This document shows, one piece after another, positions 1,741-15,474 of a DNA stretch of 15,474 bases (positions are counted from its first letter, which is position 1; every line of letters begins with the position of its first letter). This DNA comes from a virus (lineage: Duplodnaviria; Heunggongvirae; Uroviricota; Caudoviricetes). The position numbers were made by a program, and so were the translations under genes. The DNA lies in IMG/VR virus record IMGVR_UViG_2660238360_000003, one strand, 5' to 3'. Under the pieces are notes generated by a model. It saw only the letters and a list, made by a program, of their open reading frames with translations, did not search any database and had not been told where the DNA came from.

Positions 1741-1980
1741 GCTTCACCTCCGCAGAGGTCAAACGTTGGATGCAAGATATCGCAGGTGCATTTCTGCATC
1801 TGTGACTGGTTGAAAGGTGTTCTGATTGTCGTTTGCACTTTGAGTCCCCTCAAAGCGCAGAAGTCACCGGAGTTGTTCAGGCTCCGATGACATGATTATG
1901 GCGAGTTGATTATGATGAATCAATAGGTTCTTATGTCAAATGAACACTAGATCCAAAGGAGGGTAACAATTATCATAGCC

Positions 1981-1998
1981 AATGAGATTAATCTCATT
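1981..1998. promoter_or_regulatory. perfect 18-bp palindrome AATGAGATT/AATCTCATT just upstream of the RBS of the 472-aa gene; candidate operator
   Basis: The two 9-bp halves are exact reverse complements; followed by AAGGAA and ATG at 2016. Confidence 0.4.
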
Positions 1999-2015
1999 TT
2001 TAATAAGGAAATTTC

Positions 2016-3434
2016 ATGAAATATTTCTCAACTGGTTTTTATGTTTCAAACTCCACATCTCTAGCTGAGATCTTTAATGAATGTTTTTCTTGGGTAAACG
2101 ACTCACCACATACAACTTTTATTCCAGCACAATTAGTATGTGATTATAAAAGCGAGGAGTACTTCATAGAGTCTAAAAATGAAAGAATTGATATAATAAC
2201 TTATAAAAACAAAGATACTAGTTTAGGCTGTTTTAGGTATTCGAAAATATCTGAGCCACACAAATGGGTAACAGATATTTCAATTAATAAAAATCTCAAA
2301 ACTGATACCATGTGGATTCAGGTGGAATCTAGCGTTGTAAGCCAAGATGCAGCTTATCTAGCCCCGCAACCTAAGAAACCATTAGTTGTTATGAGATTGA
2401 TTGATAAATTTTCTGGTGGTCTTGATGATATTTTCAAGGTGTCAGTCGAACCTCATTCCTTAGATGATACTGATGAACATTTAAATATAGCAGCTAAAGT
2501 TATAAATGGTGAAACTGACAACAGACTACCAATAATATACGTTAGCTCCAAGTATTTTTTTAATGAACATGCTCACAATATCATCCCAGAACGCCTTGCA
2601 AGAAAGGTATGCGGATTAGCACATGTATTAATTGAGCCTAGCAATAGACTATTTTCTATTAAGCTAAAAAATGAGACAAATGCTAAAAATGCCTATGCTG
2701 GTGCTGTTGGTATCTATTGGCCACGGGGTCAAAATATCAGTTTTTATCGCCGTGGTGAGAAAACCGCAAAAGAATTTGAAGATGAGTTATTTGATGATGT
2801 TGTAAGAGCTACGACTACAATGGCTCCTGTCTCAGATAGTGGATGGAGTGAGATACAAACCAGAAAAACGAAAGACTCTATTAACTCACTCAAAGAAAGA
2901 GGAGAATACACACGCGAACTGATGGCGCTTTACGAAGCCGATAATGTTGCGAAAGATGACCAAATAGAAGATCTTAAGCATAAGATCTCCTCTTTAGAGC
3001 ACAGAGTACGCACTCTTCAATCACAAGCTTCAGCCCAAGGAAGCATTGTGCTTAATGCTGGTGAAGAGACTGATTTTTTTGATGGAGAAATCAAAAATAT
3101 AATTATTGACGCACTAAAAACTGCCATAAAAAATAAAAATGAATTTGGTAGAAGCTACCATATCTTATCATCCCTAATTGCCAATAATGAATACAATAAA
3201 GAAACCGAGAGTCGCCGCCAATTACTTAAAAGGACTTTAACAGGTTACAGAAGCATGGATAGCGCAACACAAAGAAATTTAAAGGACTTAGGTTTCAGTG
3301 CGTCAAGCGATGGAAAACACTGGAAGTTAACATATAATGAAGACCCTCGATATTCCTATATTTTACCTAAAACAGGAAGTGACCACAGAGGTTCTTTAAA
3401 TGCTATCTCGGATATAGCAAACATTATTTTCTAA
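2016..3434 (+). CDS. hypothetical protein (472 aa), AT-rich accessory (moron) gene of unknown function; candidate anti-phage/abortive-infection protein
   Basis: Long uninterrupted ORF in a visibly AT-rich segment where random ORFs are short; ATG preceded by AAGGAA; opposite strand to the flanking pR-operon genes; followed by a strong hairpin; no Walker A or other motif I can assign. Confidence 0.8.
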   Translation: MKYFSTGFYVSNSTSLAEIFNECFSWVNDSPHTTFIPAQLVCDYKSEEYFIESKNERIDIITYKNKDTSLGCFRYSKISEPHKWVTDISINKNLKTDTMWIQVESSVVSQDAAYLAPQPKKPLVVMRLIDKFSGGLDDIFKVSVEPHSLDDTDEHLNIAAKVINGETDNRLPIIYVSSKYFFNEHAHNIIPERLARKVCGLAHVLIEPSNRLFSIKLKNETNAKNAYAGAVGIYWPRGQNISFYRRGEKTAKEFEDELFDDVVRATTTMAPVSDSGWSEIQTRKTKDSINSLKERGEYTRELMALYEADNVAKDDQIEDLKHKISSLEHRVRTLQSQASAQGSIVLNAGEETDFFDGEIKNIIIDALKTAIKNKNEFGRSYHILSSLIANNEYNKETESRRQLLKRTLTGYRSMDSATQRNLKDLGFSASSDGKHWKLTYNEDPRYSYILPKTGSDHRGSLNAISDIANIIF

Positions 3435-3441
3435 TAAATTT

Positions 3442-3469
3442 CAATAGCACTCACAAATGAGTGCTATTG
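3442..3469. terminator. hairpin (12-bp perfect stem CAATAGCACTCA / TGAGTGCTATTG, loop CAAA) between convergent genes; weak U-tract
   Basis: Exact inverted repeat 8 nt after the stop of the 472-aa gene; only TT follows on plus strand, so intrinsic-terminator function is uncertain. Confidence 0.5.
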
Positions 3470-3485
3470 TTGCCACTGAATTACT

Positions 3486-3740
3486 CTATTTAAATTCAAC
3501 TTTTATCCCTTTGTTTAGCAGGGCATCAGAAACTGCCTTTTTTGTAACATTTATCCCTGCAAGCAATGCTTTATGCATTGGTCCCTTAAAAATTTCTACT
3601 TCTTCTTCAGTGAGTTTAGGCAATGTAATATAAATAACATCTTTCATCTGCTTGTTTTTATAGCATGAGCTTCTTGTGTGCTTACAATCGATATTTTCTT
3701 TATTTCCCAAAACATCATCCCCTTTATAATTCAGTTCCAC
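3486..3740 (-). CDS. hypothetical small protein (84 aa as tracked; possibly 53 aa from internal ATG at 3647)
   Basis: ORF inside the same AT-rich island, convergent with the 472-aa gene; tracked start is GTG with no clear RBS; not recognised. Confidence 0.3.
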   Translation of the reverse strand: MELNYKGDDVLGNKENIDCKHTRSSCYKNKQMKDVIYITLPKLTEEEVEIFKGPMHKALLAGINVTKKAVSDALLNKGIKVEFK

Positions 3741-3804
3741 ACATCAATTATTTAGTTATCACGAATGTCGTAAAACTAAAATTAGTAACAATAATTGCTC
3801 ATAC

Positions 3805-4092
3805 CTACTCTCTTCCATATAAAGCCAACACCCGCTTCATCGCGGCACTTTGACGACACTCCTTAAAAATCAGATTCGTGCTCACCTTTCCTTCCCGTTC
3901 TTCTCTGGTAGCGAACCGGTAATACACCGTTCGCCAGACCTTACCATCAACGACCAGGATTCCTGACCGCGCCATTTTAGCCGCAGCCTGATTTATGCTG
4001 GTTACGGTTGCGCCTGTTACCGCGGCAACGTCCTGCGCACAGAAGTTCTTATGAGTCCCCAGGTAATGAATAATTGCCTCTTTGCCCGTCAT
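3805..4092 (-). CDS. ren: Ren protein (lambda-type, 95 aa)
   Basis: MTGKEAIIHYLGTHKNFCAQDVAAVTGATVTSINQAAAKMARSGILVVDGKVWRTVYYRFATREEREGK... matches my recall of lambda Ren; ATG overlaps P stop (ATGA). Confidence 0.9.
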   Translation of the reverse strand: MTGKEAIIHYLGTHKNFCAQDVAAVTGATVTSINQAAAKMARSGILVVDGKVWRTVYYRFATREEREGKVSTNLIFKECRQSAAMKRVLALYGRE

Positions 4093-4790
4093 ACACTTGC
4101 TCCTTTCAGCCCAAACTTCGCTTTGATTTCTGCGATCTTCGCCAGAGCCTGAACACGATTAAGCGGTCTCCCGCCCATGACAGGAAGTTGTTTTACTGGT
4201 TCAGGTATCGCCTCACCACGGTTAATTCGCGCTGTCATACAGGCCAGTTCATCGGCAGCCTTGCGCCGTAATTCCGCATCAGTCAGCGCATTGGCCCGCA
4301 TGTTCTGATACAGGTTGGTAACCAGCCAGTAGTGCGCGTTTGATTTCCACGGATAAGACTCTGCATCTGGATACAGGCCACGTTTCCGGCAATACTCGTA
4401 AACCATATCAACCAGCTCGCTGGCGTTTGGCAGCCCGGCGGTAACGGATGCTTCTTCCCGGCACCAGGCAACAAACTGCCCGGGTGATGGCAGGAATGGT
4501 CGATTCTGCCGACGGGCTACGCGCATTCCTGCGTTAACCTGTTCCATCGTGGTGATCCCGTTTTCCCGGAAAGCCAGAACCCACTGGCGGCGGATTTCGT
4601 TCAGTTCGTTCTGGTCCCGGTTAGCCAGGCTCGCCGGGAAAGTTGCCAGTAACTGGCTGAACACACCATTGATGATCTGCGCTACCTGTTGTACCTGCGG
4701 CTTTTCGTCGTACTGTTCCGGCATGTTGTTGGCGATCCGGCGCATCTGCTCACGGTCAAAGTTAACCATCTGTGCGGCGATGTTTTTCAT
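4089..4790 (-). CDS. P: replication protein P (DnaB helicase loader), lambda-type, 233 aa
   Basis: MKNIAAQMVNFDREQMRRIANNMPEQYDEKPQVQQVAQIINGVF... essentially lambda P; ATG overlaps O stop. Confidence 0.95.
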   Translation of the reverse strand: MKNIAAQMVNFDREQMRRIANNMPEQYDEKPQVQQVAQIINGVFSQLLATFPASLANRDQNELNEIRRQWVLAFRENGITTMEQVNAGMRVARRQNRPFLPSPGQFVAWCREEASVTAGLPNASELVDMVYEYCRKRGLYPDAESYPWKSNAHYWLVTNLYQNMRANALTDAELRRKAADELACMTARINRGEAIPEPVKQLPVMGGRPLNRVQALAKIAEIKAKFGLKGASV

Positions 4791-5716
4791 AAATCCACCC
4801 CGTAAATCCAGTCAGTGTTTGTCAGGTCGAGTTTTGATTTTCCGGCTATCACGCCAGCCTGTTGCTTGTTACGGTTGATTTCGAGTTGGGTCCACTTGTC
4901 GCGGAGTTTGGCCGGACTTAGCACGTTACCGGACCAGAAGTTGTCCTGGCATGCCCAGCGGAACAGCACGCACATGTCGCGGTGGTTACGGCCGTCACGT
5001 TCACGCATCAGGCGGATATCGTTAGCCCACCCTGCAAAATTCGGTTTTCTGGCTGATGGCGCGATGGTCTTCACCATGTCAAACATCCACTCTGCGGCGG
5101 TCAGGTCTTCTGCTGTCCCCCACCTGCTGCCGCTCTGAATTGCAGCATCTGGTTTCTCCACAGGAAGATCGTTTTCTGGTTGGTCAGAGGATTCGCCAGA
5201 ATTCTCGGACGAAAAAGGTTTTATATTGTCTTTTGTTAGTTTGTATTTTGTGTTTACCTGATTCGGGTAAGTGCCTTTACCTGATTTGGGTAAACTTTTC
5301 TTACCTGATTCAGGTAAATTTACCTCTTTCAGGTAAACTTTATTTTTCTTACCTGATTCGGGTAATGTTGACCATTCACTGACCACATTATTAATGCCGA
5401 TATTCCGCCCGCTCTGAATAAAAATCCCACGCTTTACCAGAACACTTTTTGCAGCAGAACACTTGTGCGGCAATATCCCGGTCAACTCGGAAAGTTGCTC
5501 GTTGCTCACCCAATCCAGTTTTTTATTAAAGCCATATGTTTTGCGCATGACAGCCAGGAAGACCAGAAGCTGGTGCTGTGTTAATCCGGCCAGCATCACA
5601 GCTTCCAGCAACTCATTTGCAATGCGCGTATAACCATCATCGAGATCTGCCACGCGCGGCTCCTTTTGTGCCGCATCCGGCACTGGAAAATTGAATATCT
5701 CAGCAGTGTTTGCCAT
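4787..5716 (-). CDS. O: replication initiator O, chimeric: lambda-type C-terminal domain, non-lambda N-terminal iteron-binding domain (about 309 aa from ATG at 5716)
   Basis: C-terminal half ...SGESSDQPENDL...TAEDLTAAEWMFDMVKTIAPSARKPNFAGWANDIRLMRERDGRNHRDMCVLFRWACQDNFWSGNVLSPAKLRDKWTQLEINRNKQQAG... matches lambda O; start taken at MANTAEIFNF with GGGAGG RBS, not the longer ORF-track start at 5806. Confidence 0.88.
   Translation of the reverse strand: MANTAEIFNFPVPDAAQKEPRVADLDDGYTRIANELLEAVMLAGLTQHQLLVFLAVMRKTYGFNKKLDWVSNEQLSELTGILPHKCSAAKSVLVKRGIFIQSGRNIGINNVVSEWSTLPESGKKNKVYLKEVNLPESGKKSLPKSGKGTYPNQVNTKYKLTKDNIKPFSSENSGESSDQPENDLPVEKPDAAIQSGSRWGTAEDLTAAEWMFDMVKTIAPSARKPNFAGWANDIRLMRERDGRNHRDMCVLFRWACQDNFWSGNVLSPAKLRDKWTQLEINRNKQQAGVIAGKSKLDLTNTDWIYGVDL
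5254..5365 (-). repeat. replication origin iterons: five ~17-bp repeats (TTACCTGATTCGGGTAA and variants) inside O, flanked by an AT-rich stretch (about 5205-5253)
   Basis: Copies at 5254-5270, 5277-5293, 5301-5317, 5320-5336, 5349-5365; arrangement mirrors lambda ori but the repeat sequence is different. Confidence 0.8.
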
Positions 5717-5802
5717 AATTCCTCCCGCAATGAGTGTGTTACGATTTGCACCTGAAAGTCGGTTCTGTTCCCGCAGACCGACTTTCGCCATTTCTGAACC
5801 TG

Positions 5803-6342
5803 TCATATTGCCCCCAGCATGGTGGTCACCATCGCCATTAATGGACCAGCCAGATCCGGGTCCACACGAAACATCGACACAATACCTTCACTCATTTCCT
5901 TCAGTTTCTGGTGGCGTGGTGCGTTGAGAATGACAGCCTGTTTTGCCTCACTGAGTTCCTTTTCCATTTCAGCCAACCGAGTCATGAAGCTATCCTGCTC
6001 AACCAGGTAACCGCGATATTCCAGCGGTAGTACCGCCAGAATTGCCGGGGTCAGTTCACGCACGTTATTTCGGTATTTTTCAGAATCGAATTTGTTATCG
6101 AGGAAGCGGAACAGCTTCTGGCGTGCACGGCTGACATCATCAGGGAAATCGATGGTGCCGTCGCCCTGCTCCCGATACTCATTCACAATGAGTGCGGCAA
6201 CGACATCCTGATTATCTACAGCCGACCAGGCGCGGACGGCATCACGGATTTTTTCGTGGCCTGGAGCTTGTTTTGTTTGAGAACGATTTATCACCGCAGT
6301 CGGAATAAATCCGCTAGTCTGTTGGTATGTAAGTGGTTGCAT
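5803..6342 (-). CDS. YdaT-family protein in the cII position (179 aa)
   Basis: ATG preceded by AAGGAG; segment ELTPAILAVLPLEYRGYL resembles my recollection of Rac YdaT; sits between cro-like gene and O. Confidence 0.55.
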   Translation of the reverse strand: MQPLTYQQTSGFIPTAVINRSQTKQAPGHEKIRDAVRAWSAVDNQDVVAALIVNEYREQGDGTIDFPDDVSRARQKLFRFLDNKFDSEKYRNNVRELTPAILAVLPLEYRGYLVEQDSFMTRLAEMEKELSEAKQAVILNAPRHQKLKEMSEGIVSMFRVDPDLAGPLMAMVTTMLGAI

Positions 6343-6411: not shown

Positions 6412-6642
6412 TTAAGCTGCGTTCTTTTCGGTGTGTGGAAACAACTTCGGAAGATCCGGGCGAATCTGGTATGCCTTCACAACTCCACCAGTAGCCGTAA
6501 CAATGCTGCCGACATGTTCAGGGGATACCTTTGCTTTGTTGTGAAGCCACTTATAGACGGCCTGCTGTGAAACTTCGCAGGCATCGCCTAGTTTCTTTTG
6601 TGAACCAACGATATTGATCGCTGTTTTGATTGCTGGGTTCAT
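6412..6642 (-). CDS. cro: Cro-like HTH regulator (YdaS family, 76 aa)
   Basis: MNPAIKTAINIVGSQKKLGDACEVSQQAVYKWL...ATGGVVKAYQIRPDLPKLF; GGAGG RBS 5 nt upstream of ATG; divergent from the repressor gene. Confidence 0.75.
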   Translation of the reverse strand: MNPAIKTAINIVGSQKKLGDACEVSQQAVYKWLHNKAKVSPEHVGSIVTATGGVVKAYQIRPDLPKLFPHTEKNAA

Positions 6643-7436: not shown

Positions 7437-7665
7437 TTTATCTACGACTTAAGGGAGCGAAGGTTAAGGTTTATACCACTCGGATTAGATATTGCACTAA
7501 ATTCTCTATAAGAACGCCAAATCTGTTTGCATATTTCAGTAAATATTCTCGTTGTTAGCTGAGATTTGTTGCTACTGTCAGCAAAATGTCCCCCTATCTC
7601 GTAGCGGTTTTTATTTCGAATCATTATGTTAAGATGTTTCTGATTATAATGAATGGAAACATAAA

Positions 7666-8046
7666 ATGAGAAAAATCCTAATCGCTGCCATGATGGCATC
7701 TGTATTGGCTGGGTGTGCTTCTTCAGGCAACCAGCAACTCAAAAATGAAACTGAAATTAGTGTCCAGTCTAAACTTCAGGAAGGTAAAACAACCAAGAAT
7801 GAGGTTAAATCTTACTTTGGTTCTCCTGATGCTGTTTCATATACTGACAGTGGAAACGAGATCTGGAAGTACGCCTTTGCAAAAGTAAAAGTTAATGGCA
7901 CCACTTTTATTCCATTCTATGGATTATTCCATAATGGAACGAACGGTACGAAAAAAGAACTTACTATTCTTTTTAACGATGACACGATTAAGAAATACAC
8001 AATGTCAGAAACCCAAATAAACTCGAAATCAGGTTGGGCTGACTGA
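7666..8046 (+). CDS. lipoprotein (126 aa) with possible BamE/SmpA-OmlA-like domain, in the rexAB position downstream of cI
   Basis: Signal peptide MRKILIAAMMASVLAGC with lipobox LAGC; AT-rich; GGAAAC upstream of ATG; possible own -10 TATAAT at 7645-7650; GKTTKNEVKSYFGSPD...WKYAF...LTILFN pattern recalls BamE-type lipoproteins. Confidence 0.75.
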   Translation: MRKILIAAMMASVLAGCASSGNQQLKNETEISVQSKLQEGKTTKNEVKSYFGSPDAVSYTDSGNEIWKYAFAKVKVNGTTFIPFYGLFHNGTNGTKKELTILFNDDTIKKYTMSETQINSKSGWAD

Positions 8047-8053
8047 TAATCAT

Positions 8054-8082
8054 ACCCGGCAACCGCGCCGGGTTTTCTTTTC
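8054..8082 (+). terminator. rho-independent terminator after the cI-lipoprotein unit
   Basis: Stem ACCCGGC / GCCGGGT with 6-nt loop, followed by TTTCTTTTCC. Confidence 0.8.
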
Positions 8083-8189
8083 CTCCCCCTCATAACTCAT
8101 ACCGTCCAAAAAACCACCACACCTCACTTCAGTTATCGCTATGCGATGCAAGTCACAAAATAAATCCATCCTAAATACAACCAGTTATA

Positions 8190-12789: not shown

Positions 12790-13008
12790 ATGTACTTGAC
12801 ACTTCAGGAGTGGAACGCTCGCCAGCGACGCCCAAGAAGCCTTGAAACAGTTCGTCGATGGGTGCGCGAATGCAGGATATTCCCTCCTCCGGTTAAGGAT
12901 GGAAGAGAATATCTGTTCCACGAATCAGCGGTAAAGGTTGACTTAAATCGACCAGTAACAGGTAGCCTTTTGAAGAGGATCAGAAATGGGAAGAAGGCGA
13001 AGTCATGA
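12790..13008 (+). CDS. xis: excisionase Xis (lambda-type), 72 aa
   Basis: MYLTLQEWNARQRRPRSLETVRRWVRECRIFPPPVKDGREYLFHESAVKVDLNRPVTGSLLKRIRNGKKAKS matches lambda Xis; 3' end overlaps int as in lambda. Confidence 0.95.
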   Translation: MYLTLQEWNARQRRPRSLETVRRWVRECRIFPPPVKDGREYLFHESAVKVDLNRPVTGSLLKRIRNGKKAKS

Positions 13009-14056
13009 GCGCCGGGATTTACCCCCTAACCTTTATATAAGAAACAATGGATATTACTGCTACAGGGACCCAAGGACGGGTAAAGAGTTTGGATTAGGCC
13101 GAGACAGGCGAATCGCAATCACTGAAGCTATACAGGCCAACATTGAGTTATTTTCAGGACACAAACACAAGCCTCTGACAGCGAGAATCAACAGTGATAA
13201 TTCCGTTACGTTACATTCATGGCTTGATCGCTACGAAAAAATCCTGGCCAGCAGAGGAATCAAGCAGAAGACACTCATAAATTACATGAGCAAAATTAAA
13301 GCAATAAGGAGGGGTCTGCCTGATGCTCCACTTGAAGACATCACCACAAAAGAAATTGCGGCAATGCTCAATGGATACATAGACGAGGGCAAGGCGGCGT
13401 CAGCCAAGTTAATCAGATCAACACTGAGCGATGCATTCCGAGAGGCAATAGCTGAAGGCCATATAACAACAAACCCTGTCGCTGCCACTCGCGCAGCAAA
13501 ATCAGAGGTAAGGAGATCAAGACTTACGGCTGACGAATACCTGAAAATTTATCAAGCAGCAGAATCATCACCATGTTGGCTCAGACTTGCAATGGAACTG
13601 GCTGTTGTTACCGGGCAACGAGTTGGTGATTTATGCGAAATGAAGTGGTCTGATATCGTAGATGGATATCTTTATGTCGAGCAAAGCAAAACAGGCGTAA
13701 AAATTGCCATCCCAACAACATTGCATGTTGATGCTCTCGGGATATCAATGAAGGAAACACTTGATAAATGCAAAGAGATTCTTGGCGGAGAAACCATAAT
13801 TGCATCTACTCGTCGCGAACCGCTTTCATCCGGCACAGTATCAAGGTATTTTATGCGCGCACGAAAAGCATCAGGTCTTTCCTTCGAAGGGGATCCGCCT
13901 ACCTTTCACGAGTTGCGCAGTTTGTCTGCAAGACTCTATGAGAAGCAGATAAGCGATAAGTTTGCTCAACATCTTCTCGGGCATAAGTCGGACACCATGG
14001 CATCACAGTATCGTGATGACAGAGGCAGGGAGTGGGACAAAATTGAAATCAAATAA
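12986..14056 (+). CDS. int: tyrosine integrase Int (lambda-type), 356 aa
   Basis: MGRRRSHERRDLPPNLYIRNNGYYCYRDPRTGKEFGLGRDRRIAITEAIQANIELFSGHKHKPL... near-identical to lambda Int as I recall it, including the C-terminal catalytic region (...HELRSLSARLYEKQ...HLLGHKSDTMASQYRD). Confidence 0.97.
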   Translation: MGRRRSHERRDLPPNLYIRNNGYYCYRDPRTGKEFGLGRDRRIAITEAIQANIELFSGHKHKPLTARINSDNSVTLHSWLDRYEKILASRGIKQKTLINYMSKIKAIRRGLPDAPLEDITTKEIAAMLNGYIDEGKAASAKLIRSTLSDAFREAIAEGHITTNPVAATRAAKSEVRRSRLTADEYLKIYQAAESSPCWLRLAMELAVVTGQRVGDLCEMKWSDIVDGYLYVEQSKTGVKIAIPTTLHVDALGISMKETLDKCKEILGGETIIASTRREPLSSGTVSRYFMRARKASGLSFEGDPPTFHELRSLSARLYEKQISDKFAQHLLGHKSDTMASQYRDDRGREWDKIEIK

Positions 14057-14160
14057 TGATTTTATTTTGACTGATAGTGACCTGTTCGTTGCAACAAATT
14101 GATAAGCAATGCTTTTTTATAATGCCAACTTAGTATAAAAAAGCAGGCTTCAACGGATTC
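14057..14160 (-). other. attL (B-O-P'): lambda att core GCTTTTTTATACTAA (minus strand, 14130-14144), P' arm with Int arm-type sites toward int, bacterial B arm toward ybhC
   Basis: Reverse complement of 14113-14152 reads TGAAGCCTGCTTTTTTATACTAAGTTGGCATTATAAAAAAGC; arm-type motif CAGGTCACTATCAGTCAAAATAAAATCATTA present on minus strand at about 14060-14090. Confidence 0.9.
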
Positions 14161-14190
14161 ATTTTTCTATTTCATAGCCCGGAGCAACCT

Positions 14191-15474
14191 GTGAACACAT
14201 TTTCAGTTTCCCGTCTGGCGCTGGCATTGGCTTTTGGCGTGACGCTGACCGCCTGTAGCTCAACCCCGCCCGATCAACGTCCTTCTGATCAAACCGCGCC
14301 TGGTACCTCTTCTCGCCCGATTCTGTCGGCAAAAGAAGCGCAGAATTTCGATGCTCAACACTATTTTGCATCCCTGACACCAGGTGCTGCAGCGTGGAAT
14401 CCTTCCCCGATTACCCTGCCTGCGCAACCTGACTTTGTTGTCGGCCCGGCGGGCACTCAAGGTGTAACGCATACCACGATTCAGGCGGCGGTAGATGCGG
14501 CAATTATCAAGCGTACCAACAAGCGCCAGTATATTGCCGTGATGCCTGGTGAGTATCAGGGAACGGTATATGTCCCTGCCGCTCCGGGTGGAATTACTCT
14601 GTACGGTACAGGTGAAAAACCGATTGATGTGAAGATTGGGCTTTCCCTTGATGGTGGCATGAGCCCTGCCGACTGGCGTCACGACGTCAACCCGCGCGGC
14701 AAATATATGCCAGGTAAACCAGCGTGGTATATGTACGATAGCTGCCAGAGCAAACGCAGCGACAGTATCGGTGTTCTCTGCTCTGCGGTCTTCTGGTCAC
14801 AAAACAATGGCCTGCAACTGCAAAATCTGACCATCGAAAACACGCTGGGCGATAGCGTAGATGCAGGTAACCATCCGGCGGTGGCACTGCGTACTGATGG
14901 TGACCAGGTACAGATTAACAACGTTAACATTCTCGGTCGTCAGAACACCTTCTTTGTCACCAACAGCGGTGTGCAGAACCGTCTGGAAACGAATCGTCAG
15001 CCGCGTACGCTGGTGACCAACAGCTACATTGAAGGGGATGTGGATATCGTTTCTGGTCGCGGCGCAGTGGTGTTCGATAACACCGAATTCCGCGTGGTGA
15101 ACTCACGTACTCAGCAAGAAGCGTATGTGTTTGCACCGGCTACGCTGTCCAACATTTACTACGGTTTCCTCGCCGTAAACAGCCGTTTCAATGCTTTCGG
15201 TGATGGTGTGGCGCAACTGGGCCGCTCGCTGGATGTTGATGCCAATACCAACGGTCAGGTGGTGATCCGTGATAGCGCCATCAACGAAGGTTTTAACACG
15301 GCTAAACCGTGGGCCGATGCGGTGATCTCTAATCGTCCGTTTGCGGGTAATACCGGCAGCGTAGATGATAACGACGAAATACAGCGCAATCTGAATGACA
15401 CTAACTACAACCGCATGTGGGAATACAATAACCGCGGCGTGGGTAGTAAAGTGGTTGCAGAGGCGAAGAAGTAA
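14191..15474 (+). CDS. ybhC: YbhC outer-membrane lipoprotein (pectinesterase-like / acyl-CoA thioesterase), 427 aa; chromosomal gene flanking att-lambda
   Basis: GTG start preceded by GGAG; signal peptide with lipobox LTAC; sequence and length match my recall of E. coli YbhC; GC content typical of the E. coli core genome. Confidence 0.9.
   Translation: MNTFSVSRLALALAFGVTLTACSSTPPDQRPSDQTAPGTSSRPILSAKEAQNFDAQHYFASLTPGAAAWNPSPITLPAQPDFVVGPAGTQGVTHTTIQAAVDAAIIKRTNKRQYIAVMPGEYQGTVYVPAAPGGITLYGTGEKPIDVKIGLSLDGGMSPADWRHDVNPRGKYMPGKPAWYMYDSCQSKRSDSIGVLCSAVFWSQNNGLQLQNLTIENTLGDSVDAGNHPAVALRTDGDQVQINNVNILGRQNTFFVTNSGVQNRLETNRQPRTLVTNSYIEGDVDIVSGRGAVVFDNTEFRVVNSRTQQEAYVFAPATLSNIYYGFLAVNSRFNAFGDGVAQLGRSLDVDANTNGQVVIRDSAINEGFNTAKPWADAVISNRPFAGNTGSVDDNDEIQRNLNDTNYNRMWEYNNRGVGSKVVAEAKK

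Follow-up and report, generated by a model that had tools for sequence, protein, structure and literature searches.

An allele of the anti-phage gene DS-10 in an AT-rich island of a lambda-like prophage: domain anatomy and distant homology to HEC-07

Background

What is the role of a protein of 472 amino acids (aa), annotated as nothing more than 'hypothetical protein', whose gene faces the early operon of a lambda-like prophage? The question is raised by the virus record IMGVR_UViG_2660238360_000003 (Caudoviricetes), a stretch of 15,474 nucleotides (nt) hereafter called the window, whose coordinates are used throughout. Its early region is a lambda-like, pR-type operon encoded on the - strand and, because the open reading frame (ORF) of interest, which starts at an ATG and occupies positions 2016-3434, lies on the + strand, it opposes this operon, between ren and the nin region. 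This arrangement had been pointed out in an earlier note made from the sequence alone, which proposed that the ORF is an orphan gene with a novel defence or abortive-infection function. The product is the RefSeq protein WP_042028685.1.

Identity with DS-10 and its published phenotype

The window protein matches DS-10 (WP_087897267.1; working ID 'ZAPB'), a system of the DefensePredictor study (Science 2026, PMC13092281), at 395 of 399 residues, the comparison having been made with the first 399 residues as printed; no gap is needed and both proteins are 472 aa long. The four differences, at positions 62, 124, 133 and 215, are conservative substitutions that all fall at variable columns of the family alignment; the conservation counts given below are from 41 sequences. 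The two are the same gene, in both cases from E. coli, forming a single-gene unit and encoding a C-terminal HicA-like domain at about residues 416-471.

In the DefensePredictor tables, DS-10 is a one-gene unit from an E. coli draft genome that is marked as validated and replicated; it was cloned with its predicted native promoter/upstream region on a low-copy plasmid in E. coli MG1655 (PMC13092281). In its presence, the Bas1 titre fell from 3e6 to 30 plaque-forming units (a -log efficiency of plating of 5), that of lambda was reduced by 0.74 log with smaller plaques, and that of Bas3 was unchanged, with plaques again smaller (Table S7, PMC13092281). There was no protection against most of the 24-phage panel. 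The system is classed there as a 'predicted novel defense gene' and was not placed among the remote or structural homologues of known systems, the text reports a validated HicA domain, and HHpred assigns residues 416-471 of DS-10 to HicA (6HPB) with a probability of 0.91 (PMC13092281). In the main text, DS-10 receives no discussion under its name, and thioredoxin, HEC and lambdoid phages go unmentioned.

The defence function of the gene is already known, having been established for a 99%-identical allele, and the mechanism discussed below is one that we infer. Because that allele was tested, it is very probable that the window copy is itself an anti-phage defence gene. The defence part of the earlier proposal has thus stood, since DS-10 protects E. 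coli; its claim of novelty has not, the system having been published in 2026 and having a distant homologue in HEC-07 (see below).

When compared to a 77%-identical homologue, the gene shows a pN (nonsynonymous) of 0.147 and a pS (synonymous) of 0.77; synonymous sites being saturated while the protein is conserved, this indicates a real gene under purifying selection. The four substitutions, a promoter that is a consensus match only (see below) and convergent pR transcription, which could silence the gene, would all fit a window copy that is an inactive or silent DS-10 allele. Against this, the substitutions are all located at variable positions, none of the invariant residues is altered, the reading frame is complete and the exact protein WP_042028685.1 occurs on 450 contigs, and we consider inactivity highly improbable.

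Domain organisation of the protein

Profile searches of the full 472-aa protein against Pfam and NCBIfam returned coiled-coil noise only, and PDB sequence searches with full-length and C-terminal profiles gave nothing meaningful. The domain organisation was therefore taken from an AlphaFold model built on the 41 sequences, which has a mean confidence (pLDDT) of 84 and comprises four parts; residues 345-472 were modelled separately (pLDDT 88) and consist of four helices followed by an alpha-beta-beta-beta-alpha unit. The corresponding regions of the gene are as follows.

2016..2375, + strand: alpha/beta domain at the N-terminus, about aa 1-120, modelled with a START/Bet v 1-like fold
2376..2765, + strand: predicted thioredoxin-fold domain, about aa 121-250, without CxxC
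2766..3047, + strand: helices of which the last is the long coiled-coil one, about aa 251-344, modelled at 251-268, 277-294 and 300-337
3048..3245, + strand: helical linker domain of the model, about aa 345-410, preceding the HicA-like domain, with invariant E351, E358 and R379
3246..3431, + strand: C-terminal HicA-like domain (resembling a double-stranded-RNA-binding domain, dsRBD), aa 411-472, putative RNase effector with a G-x-H435-x-K motif

The strongest motifs of the family, LPIxYVS, GxAHVxxEP and NxYxGxxGIYWP, are located in the thioredoxin-like domain, in which H203 and E207 are invariant; no enzyme family matched this domain by sequence. The coiled coil predicted earlier around residues 300-340 is borne out by the model, in which residues 300-337 form one long helix whose Pfam and PDB sequence matches are coiled-coil-only, and the whole helical region from 251 to 344 is a probable oligomerisation element.

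Two other readings of the protein did not hold. A D-x13-D-x-K pattern had been noted near the N-terminus as a possible hint of a PD-(D/E)xK nuclease: D29-x13-D43-x-K45 is literally there, but these residues are present in only 13, 5 and 3 of the 41 sequences, respectively, none of them being conserved, and the region is a helix-loop-helix within a START/Bet v 1-like domain, a fold that is not restriction-endonuclease-like. The nuclease assignment was thus rejected. It had also been stated that no motif could be assigned to a known family, which overlooked the C-terminal HicA-like domain, the most likely effector.

Homology to HEC-07

HEC-07 is a validated single-gene defence system represented by P. 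aeruginosa WP_033943166.1 (Payne et al., bioRxiv 2024; PADLOC), whose described domains are, in order, AdoMetDC-like, thioredoxin-like (lacking CxxC) and a RelE-like RNase, the last bearing a conserved His, H543 (Payne et al., bioRxiv 2024). A profile made of the tested protein and 23 relatives was aligned with that of the window family by hhalign, with a probability of 97.4% and E = 1.5e-11 over 339 columns. The aligned span covers window residues 9-367 and HEC-07 residues 31-423, and includes a GxAHV motif common to both. With the PADLOC model of HEC-07, all 41 members of the window family give a match, although a weak one: the 472-aa protein itself reaches 36 bits over positions 107-366 of the 553 of the profile, thus not full-length, when a true HEC-07 scores 740 bits over positions 6-553.

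The similarity stops before the end of the proteins. The C-terminal 128 residues of the window protein have none with the HEC-07 profile (probability 0.2%), and HEC-07 itself ends in a RelE-like sequence (...RLYFFWDDExQVVVVGWLPSHLDNRAS). Upstream of this point, the N-terminal domain is homologous to the AdoMetDC-like domain of HEC-07, the fold label being different as START/Bet v 1 is closest in the model, and the second domain is thioredoxin-like without CxxC in both. The two proteins have in common an N-terminal domain, a thioredoxin-like domain, a coiled coil and a small C-terminal domain of the RNase-toxin type with a conserved His. They differ in size and in their ends, HEC-07 having about 550 aa and a RelE-like end whereas the window protein has 472 aa, a helical linker and a HicA-like end, with ca. 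17% identity between them. As judged from these profile comparisons and the model, DS-10 and HEC-07 are predicted to be built on a shared scaffold with different toxin-type ends. This link was found stated in neither source paper; a literature search with the RefSeq accession and 'HEC-07' returned nothing beyond the PADLOC preprint, and a domain-centric NAR 2026 paper has no mention of HicA, RelE or HEC.

The C-terminal HicA-like domain

For the C-terminal alpha-beta-beta-beta-alpha unit, the Foldseek search of the AlphaFold model that the earlier note had advised gave HicA as the top match (probability 0.72). The C-terminal profile also aligned by hhalign with E. coli HicA (E = 4.7e-5), the HicA sequence used being identical to PDB 6hpb_A, and matched His435 to the His of GSNH, the catalytic residue of HicA. 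In the family, H435, D443, R445 and Y446 are invariant in the 41 sequences and G433 is found in 38 of them, with H435 located at the start of strand 2 (G-x-H) as in HicA. Matches to individual HicA models are scarce: Pfam HicA_toxin was hit by 6 of 25 members (best E 0.0042) and the PADLOC 'HicA-like' model by 6 of 41 (best 2.6e-5), and the window protein itself does not match the HicA toxin family PF07927. Each of these tests is weak singly; combined with the HHpred result of the DS-10 authors, they indicate that the unit is likely HicA-like.

The domain shares with HicA toxins such as E. coli HicA (PDB 6HPB) a dsRBD-like alpha-beta-beta-beta-alpha fold, a G-x-H-x-K-L motif and a size of about 55-60 residues. 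It differs from those of type II HicAB modules in being part of a 472-aa protein, in lacking a nearby HicB, and in a similarity near the detection limit; no HicB-like gene adjoins the window gene or occurs near the homologues examined. A closer comparison is offered by the fused HicA proteins of classes 11-14 (Gerdes 2024, mBio), which are monocistronic, have a C-terminal HicA domain and have been proposed to act in phage defence, the suggested model being an auto-inhibition lifted by a phage product. In the same paper, class 13 proteins are described as having 340-440 aa and a mainly helical N-terminus and those of class 14 as SMC fusions, and by these descriptions the START-like and thioredoxin-like N-terminus of the window protein sets it apart from both. 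A worked example of a fused toxin-sensor is CapRel-SJ46, whose toxin is different (a tRNA pyrophosphokinase).

The weakness of the HicA match leaves room for a reversal of the domain roles, in which the HicA-like dsRBD fold would be an RNA-binding sensor of phage RNA and the START-like/thioredoxin-like core, with H203 and E207, the effector or a ligand-processing enzyme. Such a reversal would agree with the location of the strongest invariant motifs in the thioredoxin-like domain, one of which (GxAHV) is common to HEC-07, and with the description of the HicA fold in Gerdes 2024 as a double-stranded-RNA-binding fold. We nevertheless find it unlikely: the module that is swapped is usually the effector in defence systems, and here two mRNA-interferase folds (HicA and RelE) occupy the same position, the His aligned to that of the HicA GSNH motif is invariant, and the thioredoxin-like domain has no CxxC and matches no enzyme family by sequence.

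Proposed mode of action

With the HicA-like domain as effector, the model that we favour, and regard as moderately probable as a whole, is that of an auto-inhibited single-chain protein whose HicA-like domain would cleave RNA once the HEC-07-type scaffold has read a phage trigger. It is drawn from folds, invariant residues and the effector swap. The DS-10 allele would act as lysogen-side cargo of a lambda-like prophage, carried in a variable ren/nin slot, and the single chain would combine sensor and toxin. The START-like, thioredoxin-like and coiled-coil scaffold would keep the protein inactive, probably as an oligomer, and would recognise an infection signal; activation would free the C-terminal HicA-like domain with its invariant His435, and cleavage of RNA by the freed domain would stop translation and keep the phage from growing, with growth arrest or abortive infection as the probable route. 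Because HEC-07 has a RelE-like RNase at the same position, DS-10 and HEC-07 resemble a single sensor platform in which the mRNA-interferase effector has been swapped. The orientation against pR would permit expression in the lysogen; more speculatively, antisense read-through would reach the gene on induction of the prophage itself.

Several points weigh against this account. The identity with DS-10 is based on residues 1-399, the last 73 residues of the reference lying outside the comparison, and the window allele departs from the tested one at the four positions given above. The DefensePredictor paper provides for DS-10 a phenotype and a HicA match by HHpred, but no mechanism, and its supplement lists no active-site mutant of this system (PMC13092281). 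Conservation is highest in the thioredoxin-like and not in the HicA-like domain, which would also fit a catalytic thioredoxin-like domain. Finally, expression in the lysogen and a role for the palindrome found upstream of the gene (see below) may hold but are proposals only.

On a broader scale, we see an even chance that DS-10 and HEC-07 are separate branches of a single large superfamily, as yet without a name, of immune proteins made of one chain, in which a START-like, thioredoxin-like and coiled-coil sensor platform would carry interchangeable mRNA-interferase toxins, HicA-like or RelE-like, with the infection signal being read at the invariant His/Glu site of the thioredoxin-like domain.

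Family size and genomic contexts

The gene is not the orphan that it was first taken for. A word-indexed search retrieved 75 full-length relatives in Enterobacterales, Pseudomonas, Caulobacter and metagenomes, all annotated as 'hypothetical' and none with a Pfam domain, and an exhaustive profile search yielded 3,466 clusters at 50% identity with E <= 0.001, of which 1,039 have E <= 1e-30. Nearly all of the best 150 clusters of the profile search are 460-480 aa in length.

The family is carried as a single gene in cargo slots of prophages, satellites, integrative and conjugative elements (ICEs) and plasmids. In Morganella, the homologue is located between gpA and the portal gene (gpQ) of a P2-like prophage, a slot described as a defence hotspot in P2 (Rousset et al. 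2022). Salmonella and E. coli homologues adjoin the integrases of DUF927-type islands, that of Dickeya lies within an ICE, and in Klebsiella a 5.9-kb ColE1-type plasmid has a homologue as its main cargo; one homologue locus also holds Schlafen-like ATPases, an HSP70-like gene and a radical-SAM gene. Pseudomonas homologues are found at prophage ends beside HipA-like kinase genes. At two such ends (loci L009/L010, 6114-7839, and L025, 6094-7813) the DS-10 homologue directly follows a HipA_C-type kinase gene and a gene of 235-249 aa, the latter with a weak HIRAN match in one locus, and these two genes may correspond to a DS-6-like pair that makes up, together with the DS-10 homologue, a small defence cluster. 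No partner or neighbour gene is conserved across ten contexts. Since the DNA similarity to the 77%-identical homologue is limited to the gene, extending from 11 nt before the ATG to 4 nt past the stop, it is the coding sequence that moves, leaving its regulatory surroundings behind.

These contexts also bear on whether the gene is primarily a fused toxin-antitoxin module, retaining a prophage or plasmid by addiction or stabilisation, with phage protection as a side effect of its expression from a plasmid. The HicA-like domain does come from a toxin family, Gerdes 2024 places fused HicA proteins with toxin-antitoxin modules, and the 5.9-kb plasmid, which is mobilisable, also carries a RelE/ParE toxin gene. 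Post-segregational killing, however, needs a separately unstable antitoxin, which a single polypeptide does not have; in addition, protection is strong and phage-specific (10^5 for Bas1 and none for most of the 24 phages) and homologues occur in known defence hotspots, so that addiction as the primary role appears improbable.

The AT-rich island and its surroundings

The gene lies in an AT-rich cargo island at the junction between ren and ylcH-ybcN, which was delimited by GC content and by the ends of the homology to the DLP12 prophage of K-12 and has the following surroundings.

1912..3825: AT-rich cargo island
6412-6642, - strand: cro-like gene of the pR-type operon
5803-6342, - strand: YdaT-like gene (Pfam YdaT-toxin domain, E = 4e-30)
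4787-5806, - strand: O, pR-type operon
4089-4790, - strand: P, pR-type operon
3805-4092, - strand: ren, bordering the island on the right (so annotated by RefSeq in the identical locus; homology to K-12 renD)
1737-1838, - strand: ylcH-like ORF of 33 codons preceding ybcN (from translation)
1285-1740, - strand: ybcN, NinB-like, left flank (PHROG 72 NinB/Orf, E = 9e-52; RefSeq annotation)

Past the NinB/YbcN-like gene, the operon continues with ninE, ybcO and rusA-type genes. The island of deviating composition, estimated earlier at about 1.9 kb, was confirmed: its GC content is 34.5%, as compared to 50.6% (268-1911) and 51.0% (3826-6342) in the flanks, and the DLP12 homology stops at 1911 and picks up at 3826, which are the boundaries of the island. 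In K-12, the same slot holds emrE-ylcJ-ybcK-ybcL-ybcM. The entire island, composed of the gene and of a small ORF, was found in 24 out of the 5,426 complete genomes of E. coli searched, and neither its DNA nor the 472-aa protein had a match among 50,697 phage records.

A 100%-identical island is found in strain EFF60, in a DLP12-type prophage at argU. The other end of the window carries an integrase with a lambda-type arm-binding domain (12986-14056) followed, up to the window end, by a pectinesterase-like gene (14191-15474) that is probably ybhC; no tRNA gene occurs from 12986 to 15474. The window prophage thus appears to sit at the lambda attachment site, the integrase type and the adjoining pectinesterase-like gene disfavouring the DLP12 locus at argU. 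Since the EFF60 copy is located at argU, the island is common to prophages at different sites.

Some features of the flanks were also recorded. The position of cII is taken by the gene with the YdaT-toxin domain (5803-6342), as in all sister prophages sampled. The ylcH-like ORF has a GTG (Val) at the place of the K-12 start codon and is annotated in RefSeq as partial in EFF60 and intact in other strains. In phage 82, a putative promoter and a regulator-binding repeat are annotated immediately upstream of the equivalent orf33; the corresponding upstream region in the window abuts the left end of the island.

Regulatory signals and a small ORF within the island

The signals and the additional ORF found around the 472-aa gene are listed below.

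1887..1916, + strand: predicted sigma-70-like promoter, ATGACA-18-TATGAT, 10/12, the best match upstream of the gene in a consensus scan
1981..1998: perfect 18-bp palindrome, AATGAGATTAATCTCATT, between the promoter-like site and the ribosome-binding site
2005..2009, + strand: Shine-Dalgarno-like AAGGA, 6 nt before the ATG, read from the sequence
3442..3469: strong hairpin between the two convergent ORFs, with a 12-bp stem, a 4-nt loop and -17 kcal/mol
3486..3740, - strand: small orphan ORF, co-directional with pR, of 84 aa from a GTG or 53 aa from an internal ATG

Some promoter must lie upstream of the DS-10 gene, as a low-copy plasmid carrying the gene behind its own upstream region gave protection. 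The ribosome-binding site, the upstream palindrome and the downstream hairpin had all been recognised earlier, and each was recovered at the position given. The palindrome AATGAGATTAATCTCATT is present a single time in the window, where chance would give 0.01, and is not significant as an RNA hairpin (z = -0.37). It has no equivalent upstream of six homologues in other contexts and, as the DNA homology to the 77%-identical homologue begins 11 nt before the ATG, a family-wide operator was rejected; it may be a local, island-specific one. The hairpin at 3442-3469 is significant on both strands (z = -5.2 on + and -4.2 on -). A terminator scan found it terminator-like on the - strand only and, the + strand having no U-tract, it was not retained as a classic terminator for the 472-aa gene; a bidirectional terminator or an insulator of convergent transcripts is possible.

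The small ORF at 3486-3740 is confined to the same 24 E. coli genomes as the island, its homologues are near-identical E. coli copies only, and it has no match in Pfam, PADLOC, PHROG or NCBIfam. It is intact in a 95%-identical variant with an in-frame insertion of 12 nt. One variant is labelled 'phospholipase D-like domain-containing protein' in RefSeq, a label that no profile search supports. Its restriction to the E. coli island and the lack of a family match led us to reject it as a partner gene and, because it is absent next to the DS-10 homologues in the other contexts examined, it is regarded as a local passenger. At a guess, the palindrome close by could be the binding site of its 53-aa core (MKDVIYITLPKL...), acting as a small DNA-binding protein.

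Cargo slots in sister prophages and significance

The ren/P flank was found in 2,548 genomes. When the ren/nin junction was compared in six loci (the window, K-12 and four sampled others), five different cargo sets were found, those other than the island being listed here.

emrE-ylcJ-ybcK-ybcL-ybcM
emrE-ylcJ-ybcK and an alpha/beta hydrolase
emrE-ylcJ-ybcK and a P22AR-C-domain gene
a YajG-like lipoprotein and a hypothetical gene

The junction is a cargo-exchange slot in this prophage family, in line with the earlier description of the 472-aa ORF as a moron-like cargo gene in a lambdoid prophage.

Another slot of this type is located just downstream of the cI-like repressor gene, where the window carries, on the same strand, a gene for a predicted 126-aa lipoprotein (7666-8046, + strand) with a signal peptide ending in LAGC, a weak BamE-like domain, a match to PHROG 3135 (unknown function) and no match in PADLOC. 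Because its position equals that of rexAB in lambda, it is taken as a second moron-like slot. In a sister prophage of E. coli MB98 (L031, 8734-10307, to be compared with window 7440-8100), a HipA-family kinase and the DUF3037 protein WP_000210934.1 are encoded in the slot that follows the repressor gene, the DUF3037 protein being gene 2 of DS-6, a validated system in the DefensePredictor tables (PMC13092281); in other sister prophages, this place is taken by a DUF6932 gene or by a hypothetical gene of 313 aa. Defence genes thus seem to be exchanged at this slot too, and both it and the ren/nin junction are reasonable places to seek further ones.

As a discovery, the gene is of little weight since the defence function of a 99%-identical allele was published in 2026; what is added here is the link to HEC-07 and the domain parts of the DS-10 family. 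The gene can be annotated as DS-10 rather than as 'hypothetical protein', not only in this prophage but also in the 24 complete E. coli genomes with the island and on the 450 contigs with the exact protein. Finally, the homology to HEC-07 with a swapped RNase end offers a testable picture of how both systems are built, in which H435 is singled out for the putative effector and H203 and E207 for the shared core.

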